This document shows, one piece after another, positions 48,938 through 63,652 of a DNA stretch of 64,000 nt. Each line of letters begins with the position of its first letter. The stretch's first letter is position 1. A program made the position numbers and the translations under genes. The stretch is from Synechococcus sp. (GTDB lineage: Bacteria > Cyanobacteriota > Cyanobacteriia > PCC-6307 > Cyanobiaceae), in the NCBI GenBank assembly GCA_047285805.1, contig JBJBCN010000002.1, forward strand, positions 192,001 through 256,000, given 5' to 3'. The notes beneath the pieces were generated by a model, which saw only the letters and a program-made list of their open reading frames with translations, had not been told where the DNA came from and made no database searches.

Positions 48938-49924
48938 CTACCGGTCCGTGGCTCCTCCCCGGGAACCGATCTCCCCTGTCACCCAATAACGCACCCGCTC
49001 GGGATGGCTCTGGAGGTAGAAATCGACCGCGGTTTGGGCCGTTCCCTGATGGGCTTGCAGGAGGACCGCGGCCAGCTCCGTATCAGGAATCCGGAAGCGC
49101 GTCAGGAAGTCCGTCACCGAAGGGGCGATGGCACTGAGGTCTTGGCGGCCGACGGCGTGGATCCATTCCGTCCCCCCAAAGGCCCGTTTGGGATCCTCAA
49201 GAAAGCGCAGCTTGTAGCGGGCGAACATCCAGTGGGGCGTCCAGCTGGTGACGATCAGCCAACGCTGCTCACGGATGGCCTGGTCCAGCACAGCAGTCAT
49301 CGCGGCACTGCTGGAGGCCATGAGGCGCATGTCCCCAAGGCCGTAGTCCTTCAGGGCGACTTGGGAGAGTTGATTGAGGCCTGAGCCGGGATCGATTCCC
49401 TGAACGTGGTTGTTGAAGCGTGCGGCGACCGAGGGTTGGCGCAAGTCGGCGATGCTCCTGAGGACTTGGGGGTCGACATAGTCTGGGACGACCCAGCCCA
49501 AGCGACCGGAGTACATCGGACCGAGGTCCAGGACCCGATCCCGGACCCGCTTCCAGTAGTCCTGATGGGTCAAGGGCAACCAGGCCATCAACATCAAATC
49601 CAGATCGCCTCGGGCCACGGAGGCGTATTGGATGCCGATGTCGGCCAGCACCCGCTCCACAGGCCAATCGAGGTGGGTCTCAATCAGCTGCTTGGCCATC
49701 AGGCTGATGACTTCGGCATCCGCCCAGGGCGACCAGCCCAGGCGCAAGGGGCGACGTGAGACTCCCCCTCCCGTTGGCTGCGCTGGAGGACCAGACCCTG
49801 TCTGGCTGGGCTCAGGCGCCCCTGGGCGCCGGCTCAACTGGACCATGCTGGCCAGGGACAGTCCGGCGACCCCCAGTCCTGCGGTGAGTGCCGCACGCCG
49901 CGTCAGCCGTGGTGCGTCACTCAT
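48938..49924 (-). CDS. proX: Glycine betaine ABC transporter binding protein
   Basis: Tat-like TRR; AWLP.TH, GIDPGSG and W.PHWMF. Confidence 0.9.
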   Translation of the reverse strand: MSDAPRLTRRAALTAGLGVAGLSLASMVQLSRRPGAPEPSQTGSGPPAQPTGGGVSRRPLRLGWSPWADAEVISLMAKQLIETHLDWPVERVLADIGIQYASVARGDLDLMLMAWLPLTHQDYWKRVRDRVLDLGPMYSGRLGWVVPDYVDPQVLRSIADLRQPSVAARFNNHVQGIDPGSGLNQLSQVALKDYGLGDMRLMASSSAAMTAVLDQAIREQRWLIVTSWTPHWMFARYKLRFLEDPKRAFGGTEWIHAVGRQDLSAIAPSVTDFLTRFRIPDTELAAVLLQAHQGTAQTAVDFYLQSHPERVRYWVTGEIGSRGGATDR

Positions 49925-50793
49925 TGGCCTCTCCTCCAATGGCTGGGGGAAAGTCCTTGGCTTAGGCGGTCCAGGATCACCGCCAAGATCACCACGGCGA
50001 TGCCGCCTTCAAAGCCGAGCCCCACATCGAGCTGCTGGATGCCACGCAGCACCACATCACCCAAGCCACCACCGCCAATCATCGAGGTGATCACCACCAT
50101 CGAGAGGGCCAACATGATCGTCTGGTTGATACCGCTCATCACGGTGGGCAAGGCGTTCGGGAGCTGCACCATCCAAAGCAGTTGAAGATCCGTGCAGCCA
50201 AAGGAGCGGCCCGCCTCCACCAAATCAGCCGGCACCTGGCGAATCCCCAGGTGGGTCAGCCGGACGACCGGAGGCATCGCGAAAATCAACGTGGCGATGA
50301 TCGCGGGAACGGCTCCCGTGCTGAAGAGCATCACCGCCGGGATCAAATAGACAAAAGCCGGCATGGTCTGCATGAGGTCCAGCGCCGGGCGTAGCAGTCG
50401 CCAAATCCAGAGCTGACGCGTTCCCAGAACACCGAGGGGAAATCCCAGCAGCAGAGCCAAGAGGGAGGAGGCCAGCACTAGGGCCAGGGTGTCCACCATG
50501 GGATCCCACAGCCCCAGGGCTAAGACAAGGTTCAAGCCCAGCAGGCTGAAGAGGGCAAAGCCACCGCCGACCAGGCGCCATCCCGCAAGGGCAACCCCCA
50601 CGGCAAACAGCCAGGGTGCCGGCAGGGCCAGGCTCCAGCCCAGTGCGCTCGCCAAGGTCTGGATGCCCTGTTGAACAACACCAAACAATCCCTGGCCATG
50701 GTTGAGCAACCACTCCACCGCGGCATCAACGCTCTGGCCGACGGGCCCGGCCTGCTCAAGGCTTGCGATGAGAGGTGAGAAGGAGCAGCTCAT
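49921..50793 (-). CDS. proW: Glycine betaine ABC transporter permease
   Basis: LDLMQTMPAFVYLIP and EAGRSFG. Confidence 0.92.
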   Translation of the reverse strand: MSCSFSPLIASLEQAGPVGQSVDAAVEWLLNHGQGLFGVVQQGIQTLASALGWSLALPAPWLFAVGVALAGWRLVGGGFALFSLLGLNLVLALGLWDPMVDTLALVLASSLLALLLGFPLGVLGTRQLWIWRLLRPALDLMQTMPAFVYLIPAVMLFSTGAVPAIIATLIFAMPPVVRLTHLGIRQVPADLVEAGRSFGCTDLQLLWMVQLPNALPTVMSGINQTIMLALSMVVITSMIGGGGLGDVVLRGIQQLDVGLGFEGGIAVVILAVILDRLSQGLSPSHWRRGQ

Positions 50794-51863
50794 CAGACAC
50801 CCTCCCGCAGGGTCTCCAGCAGCCGCCGGGGCGTGACAACACCCAGCAGCCGCTTCTGGTGATCAAGAACCGGAGTAGGCCATGGGTTCCGAGCGACGGC
50901 GGGGATGGCGTCGTTGACCAGAGATTTGGACTCAAGCGCGCCTGTGGCTTCGGCCTGGATCCACCCGTCCTGGGGGCTAAGGATCCCCAGGAATTGCCCC
51001 GATGGGTTCAGGGCGAAACACAGCTGCTGATGGCCCCGGTCCGCGGGATCTGCCCCATCGGGCAGGACCAGGGTCTGAGTGCAGGGCTCGCGGATCTGCT
51101 CGAGGTTCAGGACGGAACCCCGGTCGACGCCCTTGAAGAAGGCTCGAACCTCGTGGCTGGCTGGCGCCGTGAGCAGCTCTAGGGGAGTCCCGCATTGGAG
51201 GACCTGCCCCGATTGCATTAGCGCGACGCGATCGCCAATGCGAATGGCCTCATCGAGGTCATGGGAGATGAAGACCACCGTGCGTCGCTGTTCCGCCTGC
51301 AGATCCAGCAGAAGGTCCTGCATGTCCCTGCGGATCAGGGGATCGAGGGCGGAGAAGGCCTCATCCATCAACAGGATGGGGGGATCGAGTGCCAGGGCCC
51401 GGGCCAAGCCCACCCGTTGCTGCATGCCCCCGGAGAGTTGCGCCGGTTTCAGGTGCTGCTGCTGTCCTAGACCTACGCGCTCCAGTGCCCTTTTGGCCGG
51501 AGCCAACCGCTTGGCCCTGGGCAGCCCTGCGACTTCGAGCCCAAAGGCCGCATTGTCGAGAACGCTCCGCTGGGGGAAGAGCGCGAACGATTGGAACACC
51601 ATGGCCATGGCTTGCCGGCGCAGGCGGTTGAGTTCGCGTTTGGAGAGGTCGGACAGGTTCTGACCGCGGACTGCGACGGATCCCGAGCTGGGTTGGATCA
51701 GTCCATTAATCATCCGCAACAGGGTCGATTTGCCTGAGCCAGAGAGGCCCATGACTACAAAAACTTCGCCCGGTTCGATCGCTAGGGATACCTGCTGGAC
51801 GGCGGCAGCGGATTGGCCTGGGAATTGTTTGGAGAGGGCGTCGAGCGTGATCGCTGAAGACAC
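50793..51863 (-). CDS. proV: Glycine betaine ABC transporter ATPase
   Basis: GLSGSGKST, LSGGMQQR and MDEAFSALDP. Confidence 0.92.
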   Translation of the reverse strand: MSSAITLDALSKQFPGQSAAAVQQVSLAIEPGEVFVVMGLSGSGKSTLLRMINGLIQPSSGSVAVRGQNLSDLSKRELNRLRRQAMAMVFQSFALFPQRSVLDNAAFGLEVAGLPRAKRLAPAKRALERVGLGQQQHLKPAQLSGGMQQRVGLARALALDPPILLMDEAFSALDPLIRRDMQDLLLDLQAEQRRTVVFISHDLDEAIRIGDRVALMQSGQVLQCGTPLELLTAPASHEVRAFFKGVDRGSVLNLEQIREPCTQTLVLPDGADPADRGHQQLCFALNPSGQFLGILSPQDGWIQAEATGALESKSLVNDAIPAVARNPWPTPVLDHQKRLLGVVTPRRLLETLREGV

Positions 51864-52183
51864 GGTTCTCCGACCCACTTTTTTAAACGCTAGCCATGCA
51901 TGAGTAGGAGCGCAGGTGTGACCCATGAACTTAGGTCTTTAGCAAGTTCAAACATTTGCTCGGATGGCCTTTGCTCACTTTGATGTCGGCGACAGCAGGA
52001 CACGTGTGTTTTGCAACAGGGCCCGCTTTGCGCTGACAGCCATGGTGCTCATCGATAGGTTGCGGCCATGGCGCACTTCATGGCTTTGTGACGTGTGTCC
52101 GGAGGCCTCTTTTGAGGTGATCCCCCCAGCCCTCTTGCTGAGCTCTGAACGGTCTGCGTCTGTCAGTGGCTCCCCCGGTTTGA

Positions 52184-53056
52184 ATGACGACATCTCATCG
52201 CACCAAGACCTCGGCGGCCCATCGGCCCAAGTCCGCGGGGGCGAAGGATGAACAGCGTTTCGGTGCGGTCCCCGAAGCCGTTCGGGAGACCGATCACTAT
52301 CAACAGGAATACATCGAGCAATTTGCAGATCGTTGGGACCGGCTGATTGATTGGGAGGCCAGAGCCCAGGCTGAAGGTGATTTTTATATCCGCATCCTGC
52401 GGGAGCATGGTGCGAAATCGGTACTCGATGTCGCCACGGGGACAGGCTTCCACTCGATTCGACTCCTGCAGGAGGGGTTCGATGTGGTCAGCGCCGACGG
52501 CAGTCCCAACATGTTGGCGCGGGCATTTCGTAATGCTCGCGACCGCAACCAGCTGTTGAGGACGGCCCAGGCCGATTGGCGATTTTTGAACCGTGATATT
52601 CACGGAACATTCGATGCGGTGATTTGCCTGGGTAACTCGTTCACCCATCTCTTTCGCGAGAAGGATCGTCGTAAATCCCTGGCTGAGTACTACGCCGTCT
52701 TGAAGCACAATGGTCTTCTGATTCTTGACCACCGCAACTACGACCGCCTCTTAGAAGGTGGTGCCGCGGTGAAGCAAGGCAAGGGAACGGTGTATTGCGG
52801 AGAAGATGTTTCCGTGAGCCCTGATTGTGTCGATGAGGGCTTGGCACGCTTTCGCTACGCCTTCAGTGATGGAAGCACTTTCCACCTGAATATGTTCCCG
52901 CTCCGCTATGGCTATGTGCGCCGACTGATGCGGGAAGTTGGCTTTCAAAAGATCACCAGCTACGGGGACTATCAGCGCAGCAAGGACGATCCCGATTTCT
53001 ACGCCCATGTCGCCCATAAGGCCTACGAGACCGATGGCGATACGACGGTGATCTAG
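52184..53056 (+). CDS. bsmA: Glycine/sarcosine N-methyltransferase (GSMT)
   Basis: TDHYQQEY...WDRLIDW, DVATGTG, CLGNSFTHL and DHRNYD. Confidence 0.92.
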   Translation: MTTSHRTKTSAAHRPKSAGAKDEQRFGAVPEAVRETDHYQQEYIEQFADRWDRLIDWEARAQAEGDFYIRILREHGAKSVLDVATGTGFHSIRLLQEGFDVVSADGSPNMLARAFRNARDRNQLLRTAQADWRFLNRDIHGTFDAVICLGNSFTHLFREKDRRKSLAEYYAVLKHNGLLILDHRNYDRLLEGGAAVKQGKGTVYCGEDVSVSPDCVDEGLARFRYAFSDGSTFHLNMFPLRYGYVRRLMREVGFQKITSYGDYQRSKDDPDFYAHVAHKAYETDGDTTVI

Positions 53057-53058
53057 TC

Positions 53059-53910
53059 ATGACTCAGACGCACTTCTCCGCCTCAGAGCGCACCGCTTCG
53101 GACTACTACGACAGCGCCGATGCTGATTGTTTCTATGAAGAGATTTGGGGCGGTGAAGACATTCACATCGGCCTTTACGCTTCCGAGACCGAAGCCATCG
53201 CATCGGCCAGCCAGCGTACGGTCAACGCCTTAATCGCCTTGATTGGCACCCTCCCGCGCGGGGCCACGGTCGTTGATTTGGGTTCGGGATATGGCGGTGC
53301 TGCCCGGCGCCTCGCCAAGGAGTTCGGGGCCCATGTCGAGGCGATCAATATCTCGGCCGTTGAAAACGCCCGGCACCGTCGGCTCAACCAGAGTGCCGGA
53401 TTGCAGGACCAAATCCAGGTGCACGATGCCTCCTTTGAGGACGTTCCCCTGCCCTCAGGCTGTGCGGATGTGGTCTGGAGTCAGGACGCGATCCTGCACT
53501 CCGGCAACCGTCAGCAGGTCCTCCAGGAGGCGGCGCGGTTGTTGAAGCCAGGCGGTGTGATGGTCCTCACGGATCCGATGGCCGCCGATGGGGTGGATAC
53601 AGGTTCCCTGAGCGCGATCCTCGACCGCATTCACCTGCCCGACATGGGATCACCGGATCGCTATCTAGCCTGGGCCAGTCAGGCCGGCTTGGTCCGTGAG
53701 GTCTGGCAGGACCAGACGGCGATGTTGATTCGCCATTACGGCCGCGTCCGCGAGGAGCTTCTGCGCCGAGAGCAGGAGTTGAAGACCAAGATCAGCCAGG
53801 AGTACCTCCAGCGGATGGCCGCTGGCTTGGGTCATTGGATTGATGGTGGACGCCAGGGACGTCTGAGTTGGGGGCTGATGCGCTTCCGCAAGCCTCTGCA
53901 GGAGGCCTAA
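53059..53910 (+). CDS. bsmB: Sarcosine/dimethylglycine N-methyltransferase (SDMT)
   Basis: YYDSADAD.FY..IWGGEDIHIG and WSQDAILH. Confidence 0.92.
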   Translation: MTQTHFSASERTASDYYDSADADCFYEEIWGGEDIHIGLYASETEAIASASQRTVNALIALIGTLPRGATVVDLGSGYGGAARRLAKEFGAHVEAINISAVENARHRRLNQSAGLQDQIQVHDASFEDVPLPSGCADVVWSQDAILHSGNRQQVLQEAARLLKPGGVMVLTDPMAADGVDTGSLSAILDRIHLPDMGSPDRYLAWASQAGLVREVWQDQTAMLIRHYGRVREELLRREQELKTKISQEYLQRMAAGLGHWIDGGRQGRLSWGLMRFRKPLQEA

Positions 53911-54035
53911 TGGAATCCTTCGCCGGTGCGGTTGTGATTTTTGTGGTGGGCGGTGTCGTCACCTTGGCGACCACCGTGATGGTGATTCAGGGCCATCTCC
54001 ATTGGCGCGGCCGTGACCCGTGGGGGGAGGGCTAA
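53910..54035 (+). CDS. 41-aa single-TM microprotein (absent from ORF track)
   Basis: TAATG overlap with the SDMT stop; MESFAGAVVIFVVGGVVTLATTVMVIQGHLHWRGRDPWGEG. Confidence 0.65.
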   Translation: MESFAGAVVIFVVGGVVTLATTVMVIQGHLHWRGRDPWGEG

Positions 54036-54038
54036 GCC

Positions 54039-55478
54039 ATGGCGTTCGCTCCCATGCTTGCTGTGCAGCCGTTCTTGGCCCCAGGCCTTGCCTGGGCCCT
54101 GGTGGTCATCTTCTCGGTGCTCTGGATCGCACTCGGGGTGTCCTGGGGGCAGCGCGGCTCTGGTGATGCCGATGACTACATGTTGGCCGGCCGCAACATC
54201 GGTTTGGCCCTTAGCACCGCAACCTTGATGGCGTCCTGGGTGACCGGCAACACCACTTTGTTGGCGCCGGAGTTTGGTTATCGGAACGGCCTCTGGGGAA
54301 TGTTCAGTTACGCCCTGGCCGGTCTGGGCTTGGTCCTGTTTGCGCCATTGGCCCTACGGATCAAACACCTGATGCCCAAGGGGCGCACCAGCGGTGACTT
54401 CATTCGCCTCCGCTACGGCCGCGCGACCTGGTGGGTCTTCATGGTGATCACCGCCATCTACACCCTCGGTTTCCTGATGACCCAGGCGATGGGAGCGGGG
54501 ATCCTGCTGGAGGCCCTTTCGGGTTTTGACTACCGCCTAGGGATGGTCGTAGTGATTGGCGTCTCGACGATCTATACCCTCTATGGCGGGATGCGCGCCG
54601 TTGTGGGAACGGACTTCATTCAGTCCCTCTTGATAATGGGGCTGCTGGTTTTGGTTGCCGTGTTGGCGCTGCAGCAGTTCCCGGTTCCTGAGCTCCATCG
54701 CGCTTTGGTCGAGGAACATCCGGAGCGGCTGAATTTGCTTTTGCCGGCGGGTTTGTTGATTGCTTGGAACTCCGCCCTCTTCTCTATGGGCGAGGTCTTC
54801 CACAACAACATATGGTGGTCAAGGGTATTCTCCAGTCGTGCCTCCGTCGTCTTTAGCTCGTTCGTGCTCGGCGGCTTGGCATGGATGACGGTGCCTTTGG
54901 TGACTGGCTCCATCGGCCTGGTGGCGTTGGCTCAGTCGGTGGATTTGCCCCAGGTGAACATGCTGTTCCCGGTTGTGGCCTCCCAGTTGCTTGGGGCGGG
55001 GGGTGCGGCCTTGGTCTTTGTGGTCGTCTTTGCCTCGTTGACCTCAACATTGGATTCGCTATTGGCTTCGACGGCGGATTTGGTAGCCGAAGACGTGGTC
55101 TTCAAGCTGCTGAATCCCAATTTGAGTGATGCCCAATTGCGGCAGGCCACGCGCCTTGTGGTTCTGGGGTTGGGGCTTTTGACCTTGCTGCTGTCGTGGC
55201 CGCGCCTGGATTCCTTGGCGTCCGTTCTCTTCTTCACCGGTGCCCTTGTGGCTTCCACGATCTGGCCGGTGGCCTACGGCCTCTATTGGCGCAGTGCGAA
55301 CCGGTGGGCCGCCATTGCCGCGATGGTCTCCGGCAGTGCCGTGGGCCTGGCTGCGTATGTCCTGATCGCGCCCTACTGCGCGGCGTTGCTCTCCGCAGCG
55401 GTCTCGGCGGCGGTGATGGCTGTGGGCACTCAGTTTCAGCCCGAGCGCTTCAACTGGCTCACCTTGAAGGAGGGATAA
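54039..55478 (+). CDS. Sodium:solute symporter (SSS; DUR3/PutP-like)
   Basis: DYMLAGR, YTLYGGMRAVVGTDFIQ and TSTLDS; many TM segments. Confidence 0.9.
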   Translation: MAFAPMLAVQPFLAPGLAWALVVIFSVLWIALGVSWGQRGSGDADDYMLAGRNIGLALSTATLMASWVTGNTTLLAPEFGYRNGLWGMFSYALAGLGLVLFAPLALRIKHLMPKGRTSGDFIRLRYGRATWWVFMVITAIYTLGFLMTQAMGAGILLEALSGFDYRLGMVVVIGVSTIYTLYGGMRAVVGTDFIQSLLIMGLLVLVAVLALQQFPVPELHRALVEEHPERLNLLLPAGLLIAWNSALFSMGEVFHNNIWWSRVFSSRASVVFSSFVLGGLAWMTVPLVTGSIGLVALAQSVDLPQVNMLFPVVASQLLGAGGAALVFVVVFASLTSTLDSLLASTADLVAEDVVFKLLNPNLSDAQLRQATRLVVLGLGLLTLLLSWPRLDSLASVLFFTGALVASTIWPVAYGLYWRSANRWAAIAAMVSGSAVGLAAYVLIAPYCAALLSAAVSAAVMAVGTQFQPERFNWLTLKEG

Positions 55479-55481
55479 GTC

Positions 55482-55706
55482 ATGGCACGGTTTCGGATGA
55501 CAACCCGCTGGGCCCTCACCCTTGCCCTGTTGGCTGTGCTGATGCCTGTGGCCAGGGCGGGAGAAGCGAGCGCGCCACCGCGCTGGTTGGCAGATCTTCC
55601 ATTGCTGCAGGTTTTGATCTACGGAAGCGTTGCGGGCTTGGCTCTTTCGGTGCTGATCCTGTTGATCCTTTGGTGGAAAGAGTGGAGGCGCGGTGATGTT
55701 TGGTGA
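55482..55706 (+). CDS. Small membrane protein
   Basis: Two hydrophobic stretches, ends WWKEWRRGDVW; 3 nt after the SSS stop. Confidence 0.65.
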   Translation: MARFRMTTRWALTLALLAVLMPVARAGEASAPPRWLADLPLLQVLIYGSVAGLALSVLILLILWWKEWRRGDVW

Positions 55707-55876
55707 TCTCTAAGACTTTATAAATTCGTTGCTTGCACTTTCTTGAACCTCTGGCTAGTAATCGAGAAGGCAGGAGCAACTGAACCAAGCTTCACCGCTG
55801 TCCTCGCAGAGGCACTTCTTTTGACTGCGCTTATCAGGAGTCCTTCTCCCTGATGTCTCAGGTCTGATTTCCCGAA

Positions 55877-56992
55877 ATGGTCATCTCTTCTCCCTCTTCT
55901 CATCTTGTCTCAGAACGCTCTATGCGTTTCAAGCCGATGGGGCCAGATGTCTACGGGGCGACTTCTCCTAAGGACCTTCTTTTAGCGATTGAAGAAGATG
56001 GTGATGCACTTCATGACTTGGCCGACCAGCACGTAATATCTGTCCAACCATTCAAGGCGAATACACTGCTTCAATTGTTCCGTCTAGCCGCGAAATACGA
56101 GAGCAATCCTGAGCGCTATACCTCACATAATACACCCCTAAAAGGCAAGATTCTTATAAATGCTTTTTATGAGCCTAGTACGCGTACAAGGCTGTCGTTT
56201 GATAGCGCTTGGCATCGCCTGGGTGGCGACTCTATTAATATAACAGACCGAAGTACAACTGGCTTGGCCAAGGGTGAGTCTTATGAAGATGTTGCGCATA
56301 TGTTTAATAATTATGGCGACTGTATTGTTCTTAGGGACGGAGACTCGAGCGCTGTCTATTCGATGGCGGATACTCTTCGCATTCCGATTATTAACGCAGG
56401 TAATGGGATTGATGAACACCCCACTCAGGCAATGGCCGACCTCTATACGATTCTAAAGTGGAGGCCTTCTTTGGTTGCTTCTGAGGTCTCTCCTGGAGAG
56501 CGGGTGAGAATCGGAGTCGTTGGAATCCCAAGTCGTATGCGAACTGTCCGCTCGCTTCTGCGGATTCTTGTTAAATTTCCTCAAATTGTTGAGGAGCTTG
56601 TGCTTATACATGACCCTGCCAAAAACGCTGCCGAGGAATTGTTCGACCCCGGGCAATTGGAGGAGTTACAGCAGGTTGGAGTCAATGTGCGTTGCACCGG
56701 AGATCTTCAGGGTGAAATCCCTGGGCTTGATGTCATCTATATCAATGCAATCGCTTGGGTGGGTGATAGTTATGAGGTGCATGGTCATTCCTTCCGTCTG
56801 ACCAGAGATCTGCCGTACAAGCCAAATGCAATTGTTCTGCACCCTCTGGCTCGAGGCCCGGAGCTGAGCACCTGCCTCGATAACACCCCCCACAACTGGT
56901 ATTTCAGTCAGGCCCGGGGTGCGGTCTTCCTGCGGATGGCTCTGCTCACCTGCATGGTGGATCGCACCAACCGGGTCATGGATGTGATCTGA
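55877..56992 (+). CDS. Divergent aspartate-carbamoyltransferase-like enzyme (PyrB paralog)
   Basis: FYEPSTRTRLSF, KGES, INAG...HPTQ and HPLAR; lacks the RxQxER motif. Confidence 0.85.
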   Translation: MVISSPSSHLVSERSMRFKPMGPDVYGATSPKDLLLAIEEDGDALHDLADQHVISVQPFKANTLLQLFRLAAKYESNPERYTSHNTPLKGKILINAFYEPSTRTRLSFDSAWHRLGGDSINITDRSTTGLAKGESYEDVAHMFNNYGDCIVLRDGDSSAVYSMADTLRIPIINAGNGIDEHPTQAMADLYTILKWRPSLVASEVSPGERVRIGVVGIPSRMRTVRSLLRILVKFPQIVEELVLIHDPAKNAAEELFDPGQLEELQQVGVNVRCTGDLQGEIPGLDVIYINAIAWVGDSYEVHGHSFRLTRDLPYKPNAIVLHPLARGPELSTCLDNTPHNWYFSQARGAVFLRMALLTCMVDRTNRVMDVI

Positions 56993-59143: not shown

Positions 59144-60424
59144 TTGGTTCTCTCTGCCCCGGGCGTTGGTACCCACACCACGACTGCACAGCGTCGGCCT
59201 ACTCCTAATGCGATGCGCCTGCTGGCGTCCCTGGAGGCCATGGCCGAGGTGGGACTGCAGCCCGATGGTTCGATCTGTCGCCGGGGCTTCACGGCTGAAG
59301 ACCGTCAGGGCCGCGAACGACTGAGTGAATGGATGATTGATGCCGGCCTGAGCCTGCGCATCGATGCCGCTGGCAATTTAATTGGCAGGCTTGAGGGTTC
59401 GGCCCCCAGCCTTCCAGCCCTCGTCACCGGCTCGCATCTCGACACGGTCCCAACGGGGGGGCGCTACGACGGCACCCTCGGTGTCTTGGCGGGCCTGGAA
59501 TTGGTTCGCGCGCTTCAGGACGCCTCGCTCCAGCTCCGCCACCCCTTTGAGTTGATCGTCTTTGCCGACGAGGAGTCCACGATGGTGGGCTGCAAGGGCA
59601 TGGCCGGCACCGCCAGCGCTGACCCCAGCGACTACACCACCAGCAACGGTGTGCCGATTGAGCGAAACCTGGCGCGTCTCGGGGGGGATTGGGACCGGCT
59701 TGCCAGCGCCGCCCGCAGTGATGACGCAATTGCAGCCTTCATCGAACTGCATGTGGAGCAGGGGGCCGTACTCGAGTGGCGTGGAGACAGCATTGGTGTT
59801 GTTCAGGGCGTCGTTGGCCAACGCCGTTTCACGATCCGCGTGCGCGGTCAGGCGAATCACGCCGGCACCACGCCGATGGATCAGCGTCAGGACGCTCTGG
59901 TGGCGGCAGCGCAGGTGGTCTTAGCCGTCCAGGCCCTCGCCCTGGATCATCCCGGTGATCCCGTGGCCACGGTCGGTAAGTTTGAGGTCTGGCCGAATGC
60001 CGCCAACGTCGTGCCTGGCGAGGTGCAGTGCAGCGTCGACCTGCGCGATCTCGACCCCGAGGTGTTGTCCGCATTAACCACAGAGCTGCAGCGGCGGCTG
60101 GCTGCCATCGCGGAGTCGAGCGGATGCCGCGTGACGATGGAGCCCCAGTTTTCGGTCGACCCCACCCCTGCCGCTCCGTCGCTGATGGACGCGATCGAGG
60201 CCGCTGCGATGGAGCTGGGCTTCTCGTACAGTACGTTGCCGAGCCGCGCTAGCCACGACGCCCAAGAAATGGGTCGTCGCTGGCCGATGGGGATGGTCTT
60301 TGTCCCCAGCCACCGTGGCTTGAGCCATTCCTCAGCCGAGTTCACAAGCTTGGAGCAGTGTGTGGCTGGGACGGCGGTGCTGCTATCGGCGTTCCTGCGG
60401 CTGGACGCGCAACTTCAGGGATGA
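59144..60424 (+). CDS. M20 Zn-dependent N-carbamoyl-amino-acid amidohydrolase (hydantoinase/carbamoylase family)
   Basis: GSHLDTV, YDG, DEE, ELHVEQG, NHAGTTPM and HDAQ. Confidence 0.9.
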   Translation: MVLSAPGVGTHTTTAQRRPTPNAMRLLASLEAMAEVGLQPDGSICRRGFTAEDRQGRERLSEWMIDAGLSLRIDAAGNLIGRLEGSAPSLPALVTGSHLDTVPTGGRYDGTLGVLAGLELVRALQDASLQLRHPFELIVFADEESTMVGCKGMAGTASADPSDYTTSNGVPIERNLARLGGDWDRLASAARSDDAIAAFIELHVEQGAVLEWRGDSIGVVQGVVGQRRFTIRVRGQANHAGTTPMDQRQDALVAAAQVVLAVQALALDHPGDPVATVGKFEVWPNAANVVPGEVQCSVDLRDLDPEVLSALTTELQRRLAAIAESSGCRVTMEPQFSVDPTPAAPSLMDAIEAAAMELGFSYSTLPSRASHDAQEMGRRWPMGMVFVPSHRGLSHSSAEFTSLEQCVAGTAVLLSAFLRLDAQLQG

Positions 60425-61140
60425 CTTTCTCGATCCTGGCGCGTGACCCCTCCAATGGGCGCTTCGGTGTGGCCGTCGCCACCTGCCATCTCGCGGTTGG
60501 CTCAACCGTGCCCCACATCCGTTCCGGTGTCGGTGCCGTGGCGACCCAGGCCCATGCGAACCCTTACCTCGGGATCTGTGGCTTGGAGCGGATGGAGCAG
60601 AACCGCGATGCCGAGTCGGTCCTGGCGAGCCTGCTGCGGGACGACCCCCAAATCGAGCACCGCCAACTGCACCTGATTGACGCCTGCGGCCGCACAGCGG
60701 GTTGGACCGGTCGGGCCTGCGGCCCCTACGCCGGCCATCGCTGTCATGCGGATCTGGCTGTGGCGGGAAACTTCCTCGCGGGTGAGGCTGTGCTGCTGGC
60801 GATGGAGGAGGCCTTCCTCTTGAGCGACCCCTCCTGGAAGTTGGGGCGACGCCTGCTCACGGCCCTTCAGGCCGGTGAGCAGGCCGGCGGCGATCGACGC
60901 TCCCCGCATGCCACTTCGGCGGCCCTGCAGGTCAGCGGTGAGGCGGCTTTCCCGCTGTTGGATCTGCGGGTGGACTTTGAGGACTGCGCGGTCGCATCCT
61001 TGACCCTGCTCTATGCGCGGAGTCAGCAACTTTGGGTCCAGCAATGGAGGGACGCCTTCGCCGAACTCCCGAATCCAGCGAGTCGTGCGATGAACCGGAC
61101 AGTCACCCCGTTGGTGAGGGATGACCCTTCGGTGGCTTAG
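60421..61140 (+). CDS. DUF1028 Ntn-hydrolase-like protein
   Basis: MTFSILARD...FGVAVAT...GAVATQ, AGN and GGDRR...SAAL. Confidence 0.88.
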   Translation: MTFSILARDPSNGRFGVAVATCHLAVGSTVPHIRSGVGAVATQAHANPYLGICGLERMEQNRDAESVLASLLRDDPQIEHRQLHLIDACGRTAGWTGRACGPYAGHRCHADLAVAGNFLAGEAVLLAMEEAFLLSDPSWKLGRRLLTALQAGEQAGGDRRSPHATSAALQVSGEAAFPLLDLRVDFEDCAVASLTLLYARSQQLWVQQWRDAFAELPNPASRAMNRTVTPLVRDDPSVA

Positions 61141-61919
61141 CTGATCAGGTCACGAATGACCCGGGCCCATCCCTCGCCATGGGCAGCGGGGGCCAAGAGA
61201 TAGCGCTTCTGCTCAAGGGCGCGGTGGAAAGCGGGGTGCGGGCCATCCGGCCCCGGAACAACGACGGCTACATCGGCGGCCTCCAGCAAAGGGATGTCGT
61301 TGGGGGAGTCCCCCAGCCCGAGCACCCGTGGCTTCGGGCCGCCGAGCCGTTCCTTTAGCCGTAACAACGCATCTCCTTTGCTCACTTCGGGCCCCAGCAG
61401 ATGCCCCATGCGGTTGCCTTGCACCACACTCAAACCAAGAGAGGAGGCCAGGGCGGGTAGGCGTTTCCTCCCTTCCGCGGTTGGGGGGACAAAAGGGACA
61501 CTCCAGCAGCGTCGCTGGGCTTGGGCGAGGGCTTCACCACCGAGGCCCAAGAGACGCTTCCCCTCGCTTTCGCTGAGCTCCTCCAGGGCCACGAGCCGTT
61601 CACCCAGGAGCGCCTCCAAGGCATCCAGCTGTGGCCTCAAGTGGCTGTGGTGGATGCCGAGGGCCTCTTCCCACTCCTCACCGCGGGCGTCTTCGCCATG
61701 GATGGCTCCACCGTTTTCGACGATGAAGGGATCACGAAGGCCAGCAGCGTCCCGAAAGCCCCGGACCTCTTCCGCGGTTTTGCTCGTGCAGGGGATCACT
61801 GGGATCTGTTGCTTCTGCAGCCAGCGGAGGGTCGTGCGGGCCGGCTCCCAGCTGTAGCTGTGATCCAGCAACGTCCCATCCAGGTCGGTGACGATCCACC
61901 AGGTGTTGTGACGTGTCAT
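61137..61919 (-). CDS. gpgP: HAD-IIB glucosyl/mannosyl-3-phosphoglycerate phosphatase
   Basis: TDLDGTLL, CTSKT, ENGG and GDSPND; gene context. Confidence 0.85.
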   Translation of the reverse strand: MTRHNTWWIVTDLDGTLLDHSYSWEPARTTLRWLQKQQIPVIPCTSKTAEEVRGFRDAAGLRDPFIVENGGAIHGEDARGEEWEEALGIHHSHLRPQLDALEALLGERLVALEELSESEGKRLLGLGGEALAQAQRRCWSVPFVPPTAEGRKRLPALASSLGLSVVQGNRMGHLLGPEVSKGDALLRLKERLGGPKPRVLGLGDSPNDIPLLEAADVAVVVPGPDGPHPAFHRALEQKRYLLAPAAHGEGWARVIRDLIS

Positions 61920-63652
61920 CGGCTGCTGATCCAATAGACGCCAAAGGGTTCCAGCTCCAGTTGGCGCTTGGCCTTGACCGTTCCAGCTGGATTGAGGTGA
62001 TCGATCCATTCCGGTGGAGAGGACTCACCCCATAGCGATGCCAACACGAGTGATTGGCGCGTGGCGCTGAAGTTGTGGATAGCCCACAGACGGGCTGGGC
62101 CGAGGCCACGCTCGAGGATCACCAAATCGGAGCGTCCGCTACTGAGCACCCGCATCGGGGAGTCAGGGTCTAGGGCTGAGAGGTTGCCCCGTTTTCCCAT
62201 GGCGAACTGCAGCTGGGCAATGTTGCTGCTGGCGGCCTGGCCAGGGTCCTGGAGTTGGAGCTGCAGGGCTCTGGCGTTGAACTTTGGTCGATTCAAGTCC
62301 CTGCGATGGCCGCTGCTGTGGAAGCGGGCCGTGTCGTTGGGGGCGGCCAGCAGGGCGGGTAGATAAAAGGCAGGAACCCCCGGCAGGGCCAGCTTGAAGC
62401 GCTGGCTGAGCAGAAAACGCTCCTGCTGCAATCGCTGTGGATCCCGACCGGCATCGGCCATAGCGCTCCACCAGCTGATGTTGATTTCGTAGGGGGCCTC
62501 GGTCCCATCACTGAGGCGGCGGTGGCTGATCAAGCCGCCCCGTTGTTCACAGCCCGCCAGGAGGTGGTGAAGGCGCGGCTGATCCATCAGCCCCTCCAGT
62601 GGCCGCAGACCGACACCGTCATGGCTGGCGCTGAAGTTCAGCAGGTTGGTCCCCTTGGGTAGATCCGGCCAACCGGCCAGCCAGCGGTTGAGGAGATCGC
62701 AGCGCTCGCTCTGGCAGGCCTCGAGCAGCAGCGGGGGCAGGGGGAAGTTGTAGGCCAGGTGTGCTTCCCGACCGGATCGCAGATAGGAGAGGTTTTCCTC
62801 CTCCGGGACGTTCGTCTCAGTCACCACGGCCCCCTCAGGGGCTTGGTCCTCCTGCAGCAGTCGTAGCACTTCGACGATGGCGTGGGCTTGGGGCCGGTGA
62901 ATGCAGCTCGTGAAAGGTTCCTTCCAGACGTATCCCACGGCGTCCAGCCGCAACCAGCCGACGCCGTGGCGGAAGAGGCGTTGCATCAGGTGGGCGAAAT
63001 GACGCAGCACCTCGGGCTCCTGCCAGTTCAGGTCTATTTGGTCTGGGCCGAAGGTGGTCCAGACCTGCTTGCGGCCGGCCAGGGGACTGATCAAGGGCGA
63101 GCTGCGGGGCCGAACGACTTCCGACCAGCAGGGATCGGGGCTGGCCTGCAGGATGCAGGAGCTTCCGGGGTCAGTGTCTTGGAGGCATTGGTGCACCCAG
63201 GGGTGCGAAGCCGAGACGTGGTTCAGGACAAGGTCCGCCATGAGGAGACGTCCACGGCTCAAGGCCTCGAGGTCTTCCCAATCACCAAAGCGTGGCTCGA
63301 GCTCCTCGTGGCTGGAGATGGCAAAGCCCCCGTCGCTGCTGGATCGCAAAAAGGGCAGCACATGGACGATGGAGGAGAGGGCGCGGAGCGGGCCATCCAA
63401 CAGTGCTTTCAGCAGGGGAAGGCTGGTGCGATCAGCATCGATGACCGAATCGGCGTAGCAGATCAGCACACAGGTCGCATTGCACCAGGGCCGCTGCGGC
63501 TGGGTGTGCATCTGCGCACCGATTCGGCCGGACTGCAGCAAATGAGACGACAAGCTTTCGATGTCGTTTGAAGACTGCCCTGGGTAAAGACCGCCAAGCA
63601 ACAGTTCCAGCTGTTTCTGCCGGTCGAACCCAACCACCAGCACTCCCATCAC
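61916..63652 (-). CDS. GH13_18 phosphorylase, glucosylglycerate-phosphorylase type
   Basis: DLVLNH, RLDAVGY, TETN, SHDGVG and PYEIN. Confidence 0.82.
   Translation of the reverse strand: MMGVLVVGFDRQKQLELLLGGLYPGQSSNDIESLSSHLLQSGRIGAQMHTQPQRPWCNATCVLICYADSVIDADRTSLPLLKALLDGPLRALSSIVHVLPFLRSSSDGGFAISSHEELEPRFGDWEDLEALSRGRLLMADLVLNHVSASHPWVHQCLQDTDPGSSCILQASPDPCWSEVVRPRSSPLISPLAGRKQVWTTFGPDQIDLNWQEPEVLRHFAHLMQRLFRHGVGWLRLDAVGYVWKEPFTSCIHRPQAHAIVEVLRLLQEDQAPEGAVVTETNVPEEENLSYLRSGREAHLAYNFPLPPLLLEACQSERCDLLNRWLAGWPDLPKGTNLLNFSASHDGVGLRPLEGLMDQPRLHHLLAGCEQRGGLISHRRLSDGTEAPYEINISWWSAMADAGRDPQRLQQERFLLSQRFKLALPGVPAFYLPALLAAPNDTARFHSSGHRRDLNRPKFNARALQLQLQDPGQAASSNIAQLQFAMGKRGNLSALDPDSPMRVLSSGRSDLVILERGLGPARLWAIHNFSATRQSLVLASLWGESSPPEWIDHLNPAGTVKAKRQLELEPFGVYWISSR

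Follow-up and report, generated by a model that had tools for sequence, protein, structure and literature searches.

Gene content of the locus

Within the stretch of DNA analysed here (the window, 64,000 nucleotides of contig JBJBCN010000002.1 in the Synechococcus sp. assembly GCA_047285805.1), a gene for a protein resembling aspartate carbamoyltransferase (ATCase), which we call the pseudo-ATCase (pyrB2), lies in an operon with neighbours involved in solute metabolism (Table 1). A divergent betaine ABC transporter is followed by two betaine methyltransferases, a 41-aa ORF, a Na+ symporter, a 74-aa ORF and the pseudo-ATCase, after which come an AsnB-like amidotransferase, an M20 carbamoylase, a DUF1028 gene and, in convergent orientation, HAD and alpha-amylase-family genes that are putatively the glucosylglycerate genes gpgP and gmgG. 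The operon here sits between genes for betaine synthesis and uptake and further solute genes, and the overlap of the 41-aa ORF with the stop codon of the second methyltransferase ties it to betaine synthesis in this lineage. At other Synechococcus loci, too, a comparable ORF comes before the symporter.

Table 1. Features of the pseudo-ATCase locus, in window coordinates.
Feature	Position	Strand	Basis
Betaine-type ABC transporter (OpuAC, permease, ATPase), divergent	48938..51926	-	Domain search
Glycine/sarcosine and sarcosine/dimethylglycine methyltransferases (betaine synthesis), in the same direction as the operon in this lineage	52184..53910	+	Profiles
41-aa hydrophobic ORF; its start codon overlaps (TAATG) with the stop codon of the second betaine methyltransferase	53910..54035	+	ORF reading
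Sodium:solute symporter	54039..55478	+	Profiles
74-aa hydrophobic ORF without a Pfam match, separating symporter from pseudo-ATCase	55482..55706	+	ORF reading
AT-shifted mosaic patch: spacer and 5′ three quarters of the pseudo-ATCase gene	55707..56750	+	Composition and synonymous-site comparison
Pseudo-ATCase (pyrB2), 371 aa, ATCase fold, ~47-aa conserved N-terminal extension	55877..56992	+	Profile, alignment and structure-model evidence
STRT 101-104, carbamoyl-phosphate loop (E. coli S52-T55)	56177..56188	+	Motif and alignment
R222 (E. coli R167), alpha-carboxylate binder, invariant	56540..56542	+	Alignment; role from accessible part of PMC4581275
NAIAW 290-294 for TRVQK: R229>A, Q231>A; N290 at the OTCase D231 position	56744..56758	+	Alignment; roles from accessible part of PMC4581275
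HPLA 322-325 for HPLP	56840..56851	+	Motif, alignment and accessible part of PMC4016543
AsnB-like glutamine-dependent amidotransferase, 682 aa	57005..59053	+	TIGR01536, 411.9 (cut-off 267.1)
M20 N-carbamoyl-amino-acid amidohydrolase (pydC), start codon uncertain	59144..60424	+	TIGR01879 over cut-off
DUF1028 protein, conserved Thr2, candidate amidase	60421..61140	+	Domain search, conservation
HAD phosphatase and alpha-amylase-family gene, convergent	61137..63652	-	Domain search

For the symporter gene in the same position in strain HK05, the best KEGG match is DUR3 (PMC9948718, accessible part). The AsnB-like protein keeps Cys2, HNGEFY, SGGIDS and TGEGSDELF, each present in at least 95% of the covering loci (76 loci), and it falls outside the AsnO family, since its TIGR03104 score (288.4) is under the cut-off of 570.1. 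The M20 protein scores highest with NF058540 (ErtE, an N-carbamyl-glutamate hydrolase model), at 423.9, below the cut-off of 520. The DUF1028 protein presumably has an Ntn-hydrolase fold.

Several searches gave negative results. No carbamate kinase (arcC) exceeded its cut-off in the genome, no dihydroorotase or other pyr gene was found among the neighbours read, and no Ngg acetyltransferase/ligase gene among the window neighbours. A scan for sigma-70 promoters returned 0 sites against 2.3 expected, terminators occurred at chance level, and there is no NtcA-like box in the window, including the replaced spacer described below. Elsewhere in the genome, a second AsnB-like gene (604 aa, C2:451431-453245) adjoins a Clp-type chaperone gene outside the operon, and a different contig (C3:600945-623335) carries the urease, urea transporter and nitrate/nitrite genes; in strain RS9907, the cluster is near the nitrate genes.

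A carbamoyltransferase with an altered acceptor pocket

A preliminary description of this gene proposed that its product keeps the carbamoyl-phosphate site of ATCases and has lost the site for the aspartate side chain. The gene is an intact frame, and a profile search finds both OTCace domains in its product. The nearest solved sequences and folds are those of ATCases, and the structure model (mean pLDDT 86.5) matches PALA-bound ATCases with TM-scores of 0.87-0.89 over the target. The protein scores below every NCBIfam carbamoyltransferase cut-off, the best being TIGR00670 (192.9 against 236.95), and its NF002032 score (180.2, cut-off 263) does not reach the PyrB threshold. The alignment with E. 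coli PyrB begins only at residue 48, and thus the N-terminal extension, previously put at about 50 aa, is real; G27, P31, L35, E40 and L45 are invariant among 66 sequences, helices are modelled at 32-37 and 42-48 with pLDDT of ~90, and the ~47 residues are predicted to form a conserved and folded element.

The same genome, which is 100% complete, has a separate canonical pyrB with RLQKER (C3:202738-201818), the presence of which had been proposed as a check, and an argF (C2:167277-166366). We also considered that the pseudo-ATCase could be a pseudogene, which is ruled out by the open frame, the invariant residues and a dN of 0.10 against saturated dS.

Taking E. coli PyrB (from NC_000913) as the reference for residue numbering, S52, T53, R54, T55, K84, R105, H134, Q137, R167, P266, L267 and R296 are kept, including all the carbamoyl-phosphate residues (S52-T55, R105, H134, Q137, P266 and L267), and the motifs STRT, KGES, HPTQ and RT were located at residues 101, 132, 181 and 222. 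The changes are T228>N290, R229>A291, Q231>A293, K232>W294, E233>V295, P268>A325, G166>M221 and D162>I217. The RxQxER motif, found in all known ATCases according to the accessible part of PMC4581275, is absent here (A291, A293), with INAIAWVGD in its place (residue 289). HPLA stands for HPLP (residue 322), HPLP itself is missing, and a motif search agrees with the earlier observation that the SMG and HCLP motifs of ornithine carbamoyltransferases (OTCases) are absent. Other features of OTCases and putrescine carbamoyltransferases, namely the DxxxSMG loop, the Lys or Gln in FxKxSxRT and scores above the family cut-offs, are likewise lacking. The stretch around R229 and Q231 aligns without gaps (YMTRVQK in PyrB, YINAIAW here), and phmmer alignments to plant and Pyrococcus ATCases give the same correspondence for the 240s loop.

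In a set of 121 proteins (the query and the best 120 of 2120 matches), position 291 is A, S or T in 113, 6 and 2 proteins, and position 293 in 118, 2 and 1; an attempt to refute the loss by looking for Arg or Gln aligned with R229 and Q231 failed in 121/121. Among 119 loci, of which a few are duplicates, NAIAW occurs in 117 and NTIAW in 2, while HPLAR occurs in all. Because positions 291 and 293 hold A, S or T in every protein and the motifs are fixed across the loci, the pocket changes are attributable neither to chance nor to decay. Judged by its sequence, the pseudo-ATCase is a real and conserved protein, different from ATCase, and a further member of a family that has already been published.

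In the accessible part of PMC4581275, R229 and Q231 hold aspartate's beta-carboxyl group and R167 and K84 its alpha-carboxyl group, and D231 of OTCase binds ornithine. The pseudo-ATCase retains R167 and K84, which had been overlooked. As these are kept and R229 and Q231 are lost, the pocket would take an alpha-amino acid whose alpha-carboxylate is free and would lack a clamp for a beta-carboxylate, and carbamoylation would come first, before any amidation of that carboxylate. An acceptor other than aspartate is therefore well supported by the lost residues, the separate pyrB and the scores under the cut-offs, and the gene context is compatible with the suggestion of a neutral or longer amino acid. 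The amide nitrogen of glutamine, for instance, is as many bonds from the attacking amine as the alpha-amino group of ornithine and would be expected to reach N290. M221 and W294 add bulk (G166>M and K232>W), so that the pocket is not necessarily larger.

Relation to published families

Barba et al. (2013, PMC4016543, accessible part) defined pseudo-ATCases by HPLA together with AIA/AIS/SIA motifs (their Table 1) and described a marine subgroup from Synechococcus WH 8102, Nitrosococcus oceani, Rhodopirellula baltica and Kangiella koreensis. These share with our protein STRT, HPTQ, HPLA, AIA/AIS/SIA and a genuine pyrB elsewhere, as well as a Na+ symporter on one side, an 'asparaginase' on the other and an adjacent carbamoylase, and we see no difference in kind. 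In the accessible part of that paper, activity was tested only for an unrelated Rubrobacter enzyme, and no function is proposed for the marine subgroup. Its Table 1 assigns HPLA/AIA to group 1 and its text and Fig. 5 assign the marine proteins to group 3; together with the H(T/S)LP motif given for ureidoglycine carbamoyltransferase (UGTCase) in the accessible part of PMC4581275, this makes the labels look swapped. Compared with PyrB, the fold, the carbamoyl-phosphate site, R167 and K84 are the same, whereas RxQxER has become AIAW, HPLP has become HPLA, D162 is lost, an extension has been added and the score is below the cut-off. UGTCase (Rxyl_2847) is likewise an ATCase-derived paralogue with an altered 240s loop, but its H(T/S)LP motif, its carbamate kinase and allantoinase neighbours and its catabolic role, as given in accessible sources, have no counterpart here.

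The cluster has also been reported as pyrB2-asnB-pydC. In the accessible part of Dore et al. (2023, 10.1101/2022.08.17.504260, PMC10119275), it is found in most Synechococcus of warm waters depleted of nitrogen and phosphorus and in a fifth of HLII Prochlorococcus, particularly in the Red Sea. These are the same genes, in Synechococcus and some Prochlorococcus, and they are read there as an alternative pyrimidine synthesis or as nitrogen recycling. The motif signature and the gene cluster are thus already published, and what is added here is the salinity-regulated presumed orthologue, the co-occurrence with ggpS and the position of the operon next to betaine genes in the window.

Distribution and variation of the cluster

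Pseudo-ATCases form one tight cluster, with more than 50% identity and an invariant pocket, and in a tree they are a clade (support 0.99) apart from the RxQ-bearing ATCases. Judged by record titles, the named carriers are mostly marine or saline; in a draw across the phylum, only 3 of 301 genomes matched, all from the family to which the window belongs. Among 80 named loci (the best 80 of 129), the AsnB-like gene is present in 77, M20 in 65, DUF1028 in 53 and the symporter in 49, and the three loci without AsnB are explained by sequence that ends within 33 bases downstream. Betaine genes lie beside the cluster in only one of these 80 loci, so that this adjacency is lineage-specific, and of the loci whose 8-kb upstream flank is complete, 18 of Prochlorococcus type lack the symporter.

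In Ectothiorhodospira mobilis, an isochorismatase-family hydrolase occupies the DUF1028 slot. The same is true of 13 of 30 short loci from its family and of two metagenome loci, and in another locus (L080) an amidase-family gene comes next; these non-homologous enzymes could each be a candidate remover of an amide. A MarR regulator lies upstream of the cluster in three gammaproteobacterial loci (L033:5227-5763, L078:5331-5933 and L079), and one genome of the window's family (G517) has two pseudo-ATCase copies (C1:2535827 and C1:1682796).

More distant relatives were also observed. A sister clade of ~355 aa (P0129, P0132-P0144, P0149, P0152 and P0168; loci L121-L123) keeps the N-terminal extension while STRT, K84 and HPLA are eroded, and is probably catalytically dead; AsnB, M20 and the symporter are absent nearby in the three of three loci read. 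Six active-looking relatives (P0123, P0124, P0126-P0128 and P0137), one of them from Actinophytocola, have the 240s loops NSLIW, NSIAF, NALVP, NVIAP, NSIAY and NSLTN, and may use other acceptors.

In this genome, the spacer and most of the gene form an AT-shifted patch, with a GC3 of 0.45, whereas L001, the nearest relative with a name, has 0.82. Its synonymous sites are saturated (pS 0.88; 0.18-0.29 in the flanking genes), and the protein it encodes is still closest to the L001 lineage (84%). The patch is common to genome G382 (GC3 0.49, 96% identical) and is not found in G324 or G392 (0.81). It looks like an allele replacement or the effect of local mutation pressure, under purifying selection. 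A search of viral contigs found no relative. In metatranscriptomes, 15 runs had shares of 0.05-0.10. In four runs, contigs of relatives span 27-28 of 30 bins and leave the patch barely covered or uncovered; such contigs show neither transcription nor its level.

Salinity, nitrogen and the cluster

Synechococcus RS9907 has been studied by RNA-seq at 18, 36 and 50 PSU (PMC12834511, accessible part). SynRS9907_02955 is the presumed orthologue of the pseudo-ATCase, to judge from how it is annotated and from its place in a run of symporter, small gene, ATCase, AsnB and carbamoylase. The overall salinity list of that study, which comprises 188 genes (6%), includes it. In the accessible low-temperature sheet, whose ordering is unstated, ggpS is entry 2, SynRS9907_02955 entry 9, asnB 35 and pydC 52; this list comprises 51 genes according to the text and more than 71 rows in the sheet. 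In the soft clustering of the same study, membership together with ggpS is only 0.50, and the canonical pyrB belongs to that cluster at 0.75.

We renormalised the raw counts by 48 genes, namely 23 of 25 methyltransferase rows (two with zeros were dropped) and 25 rows from one part of the table, with rows for nitrogen-island genes, very low counts, DnaK and sigma factors excluded. On this basis, SynRS9907_02955 changes by a log2 of +1.33 at 36-50 against 18 PSU (2.5-fold lower at 18 PSU), with all six low-salt samples below all 14 others. The corresponding values are +1.12 for the symporter, +0.67 for asnB (at 20 °C only) and +0.23 for the canonical pyrB, and the largest among the 48 reference genes is +1.10. 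From 36 to 50 PSU, SynRS9907_02955 is flat, whereas ggpS rises 3- to 4-fold, and the response at 18 PSU may be general stress for a marine strain.

Gene distribution is also linked to salinity. Among 22 genomes of the genus, all 7 carriers have ggpS and only 1 of the 15 non-carriers does; betaine methyltransferases are present in four, all of them carriers. In a draw of 141 family genomes with at least 95% completeness, ggpS is over its cut-off in 29 of 30 carriers against 19 of 111 non-carriers, counts in which kin are not independent, so that Fisher values exaggerate the association; the co-occurrence may only mark marine descent. In an HK05 salinity study (PMC9948718), the cluster is annotated and no expression rows for it were found in the searchable supplements, and the cluster terms were not found in the accessible main text of a paper on the salinity divide (PMC9361551).

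With regard to nitrogen, strict matches to GTA-N8-TAC, which we take to be the NtcA-type consensus, lie upstream of the gene in 7 of the 23 Synechococcus loci, in 2 of the 12 Prochlorococcus loci and in 1 of the 7 loci of Cyanobium type, which are related to one another and were counted with no chance control. Boxes are located 141-164 bases upstream of the aligned gene start in L001, L007, L015, L025, L027, L028 and L077, and none was found upstream of M20 in the loci scanned. The SynRS9907_02955 transcript has correlations of -0.21, -0.09 and -0.05 with nrtP, nirA and amt. M20 and DUF1028 of RS9907 are up ~20-fold in two of 20 samples, both with high nrtP and nirA, but two other samples with high nrtP show no such rise, and nitrogen control of the breakdown arm is thus only a hint.

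A possible route to N-carbamoyl-glutamine 1-amide

In the synthesis of the solute NAGGN, the amino group is capped and the carboxyl group is then amidated by an AsnB-like enzyme; these genes are accompanied by one for a hydrolase and often by a MarR gene. By analogy, a route encoded by the present cluster would parallel this logic, with differences: the cap is acetyl in the NAGGN pathway (Ngg, AsnO) and would be carbamoyl here, a peptide ligase is lacking here and the amidotransferase is below the AsnO cut-off. Since the alpha-carboxylate would be free at carbamoylation, the lost clamp excludes aspartate and the obligatory partner is an amidating enzyme, an N-carbamoyl amino-acid amide is a likely product, which would probably protect against salt. 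One such compound is N-carbamoyl-glutamine 1-amide (CGA), for which PMC1224877 gives the structure and Ectothiorhodospira marismortui as the producer, and which was described in 1991 (Galinski and Oren). A carbamoyltransferase and a carboxyl amidotransferase would supply its two caps.

We infer the direction of the pathway, the order of its steps, the acceptor and the product as follows. The pseudo-ATCase would carbamoylate glutamine (or glutamate) at the amino group, and the AsnB-like enzyme would then amidate the alpha-carboxyl group at the expense of ATP, yielding CGA. The Na+ symporter would re-import CGA, the DUF1028 protein (in other taxa, the isochorismatase- or amidase-family enzyme) would take off the amide, and the M20 hydrolase would remove the carbamoyl cap, with recovery of the nitrogen. 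We give even chances to the proposal that the pseudo-ATCase and its AsnB-like partner make the osmolyte of E. marismortui from glutamine (or glutamate). The narrower claim that pyrB2-asnB is the missing CGA biosynthesis, comprising a glutamine carbamoyltransferase, a new activity, and an alpha-carboxyl amidotransferase, is a tentative one to which we give slightly less than an even chance.

In E. mobilis DSM 237, a run of MarR, M20, isochorismatase-family hydrolase, pseudo-ATCase and AsnB genes lies beside sucrose synthase, and its pseudo-ATCase is 58% identical to ours, with the same pocket. PMC1224877 treats the producer E. marismortui as E. mobilis, and PMC7824335 lists E. marismortui, in which CGA was shown, apart from DSM 237. 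Of 55 genomes from the family of E. mobilis, 49 carry the gene, and the reviews consulted name only E. marismortui as a CGA producer, and therefore the presence of the gene in kin of the producer is weak and unspecific evidence. Rhodopirellula baltica, a carrier of a pseudo-ATCase (PMC4016543, accessible part), counts against the CGA reading, as 800-MHz NMR across salinities reports glutamate, sucrose, trehalose and mannosylglucosylglycerate and no CGA in the accessible part of PMC3694870. In stress arrays of this species (PMC2754498, accessible part), the neighbouring gene RB13300 is in the salt-up list and RB13301, the pseudo-ATCase, is not listed. Full-text literature searches, outside which most subscription papers and theses lie, found no published gene assignment for CGA and no link of these genes to it, nor did the literature searched contain an assay of any member of the marine group.

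Alternative readings

It is also possible, although rather unlikely, that the same two-step chemistry acts on another acceptor (Asn, Ser, Ala, Gly, Met or similar), yielding an N-carbamoyl amino-acid amide not described before, which would act as a solute or as a store of nitrogen. Gene context, transcription in RS9907 and co-occurrence with ggpS would fit this equally, the new invariant residues M221, W294, A291 and A293 could shape a small or hydrophobic pocket, and the lack of reported CGA in R. baltica agrees with it. Glutamine is favoured in that CGA is the sole natural solute of this kind met in the literature searched, that M20 scores best, if under cut-off, with a model for N-carbamyl-glutamate hydrolases, and that a family so tight, with an invariant pocket, is likely to share one acceptor throughout, E. 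mobilis included.

The remaining readings depart from synthesis of a solute. UGTCase, which acts on allantoate, offers a precedent among pseudo-ATCases (PMC4016543, accessible part) for a catabolic role in which a ureido compound is taken up through the symporter and phosphorolysed by the enzyme, releasing carbamoyl phosphate. The DUR3-like symporter, the nitrate neighbours in RS9907, the NtcA-like boxes (the 7 of 23 Synechococcus loci included) and the nitrogen-poor niche fit a nitrogen store or scavenging equally well. We nevertheless find nitrogen scavenging improbable: the genome has no carbamate kinase over cut-off, a carbamoylase that works by hydrolysis is already part of the operon, the gene found most regularly beside the pseudo-ATCase encodes an amidotransferase that spends ATP and has its motifs intact, the RS9907 transcript fails to track nrtP, nirA or amt, and the 18 Prochlorococcus-type loci do without the symporter. 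A role as an alternative carbamoyltransferase of aspartate or beta-alanine, in making or recycling pyrimidines, suggested in the accessible part of Dore et al. (2023) and in keeping with the database names and the ATCase-like sequence and fold, is more improbable still, and we would be very surprised if it were correct. The pocket, which lacks R229 and Q231 in all 121 proteins, argues against aspartate and hence against that reading, as do the scores under the ATCase cut-offs and the canonical pyrB; no pyr gene was found among the neighbours read, and the amidotransferase would have no place in such a route.

Implications

Databases name this family aspartate carbamoyltransferase. If the proposal that it makes CGA is true, the pathway for a solute described more than three decades ago would be closed, and glutamine carbamoyltransferase would be a new activity in the transcarbamylase family. 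A solute with four nitrogen atoms, overlooked so far, would then be synthesised, taken up and recycled in many marine Synechococcus, in some Prochlorococcus and in most Ectothiorhodospiraceae; its synthesis would be linked to salt, and it would be mobilised as a nitrogen store. Some of the most abundant phototrophs of the ocean would contain an unmeasured nitrogen-rich metabolite, with an expected mass of [M+H]+ 189.098.
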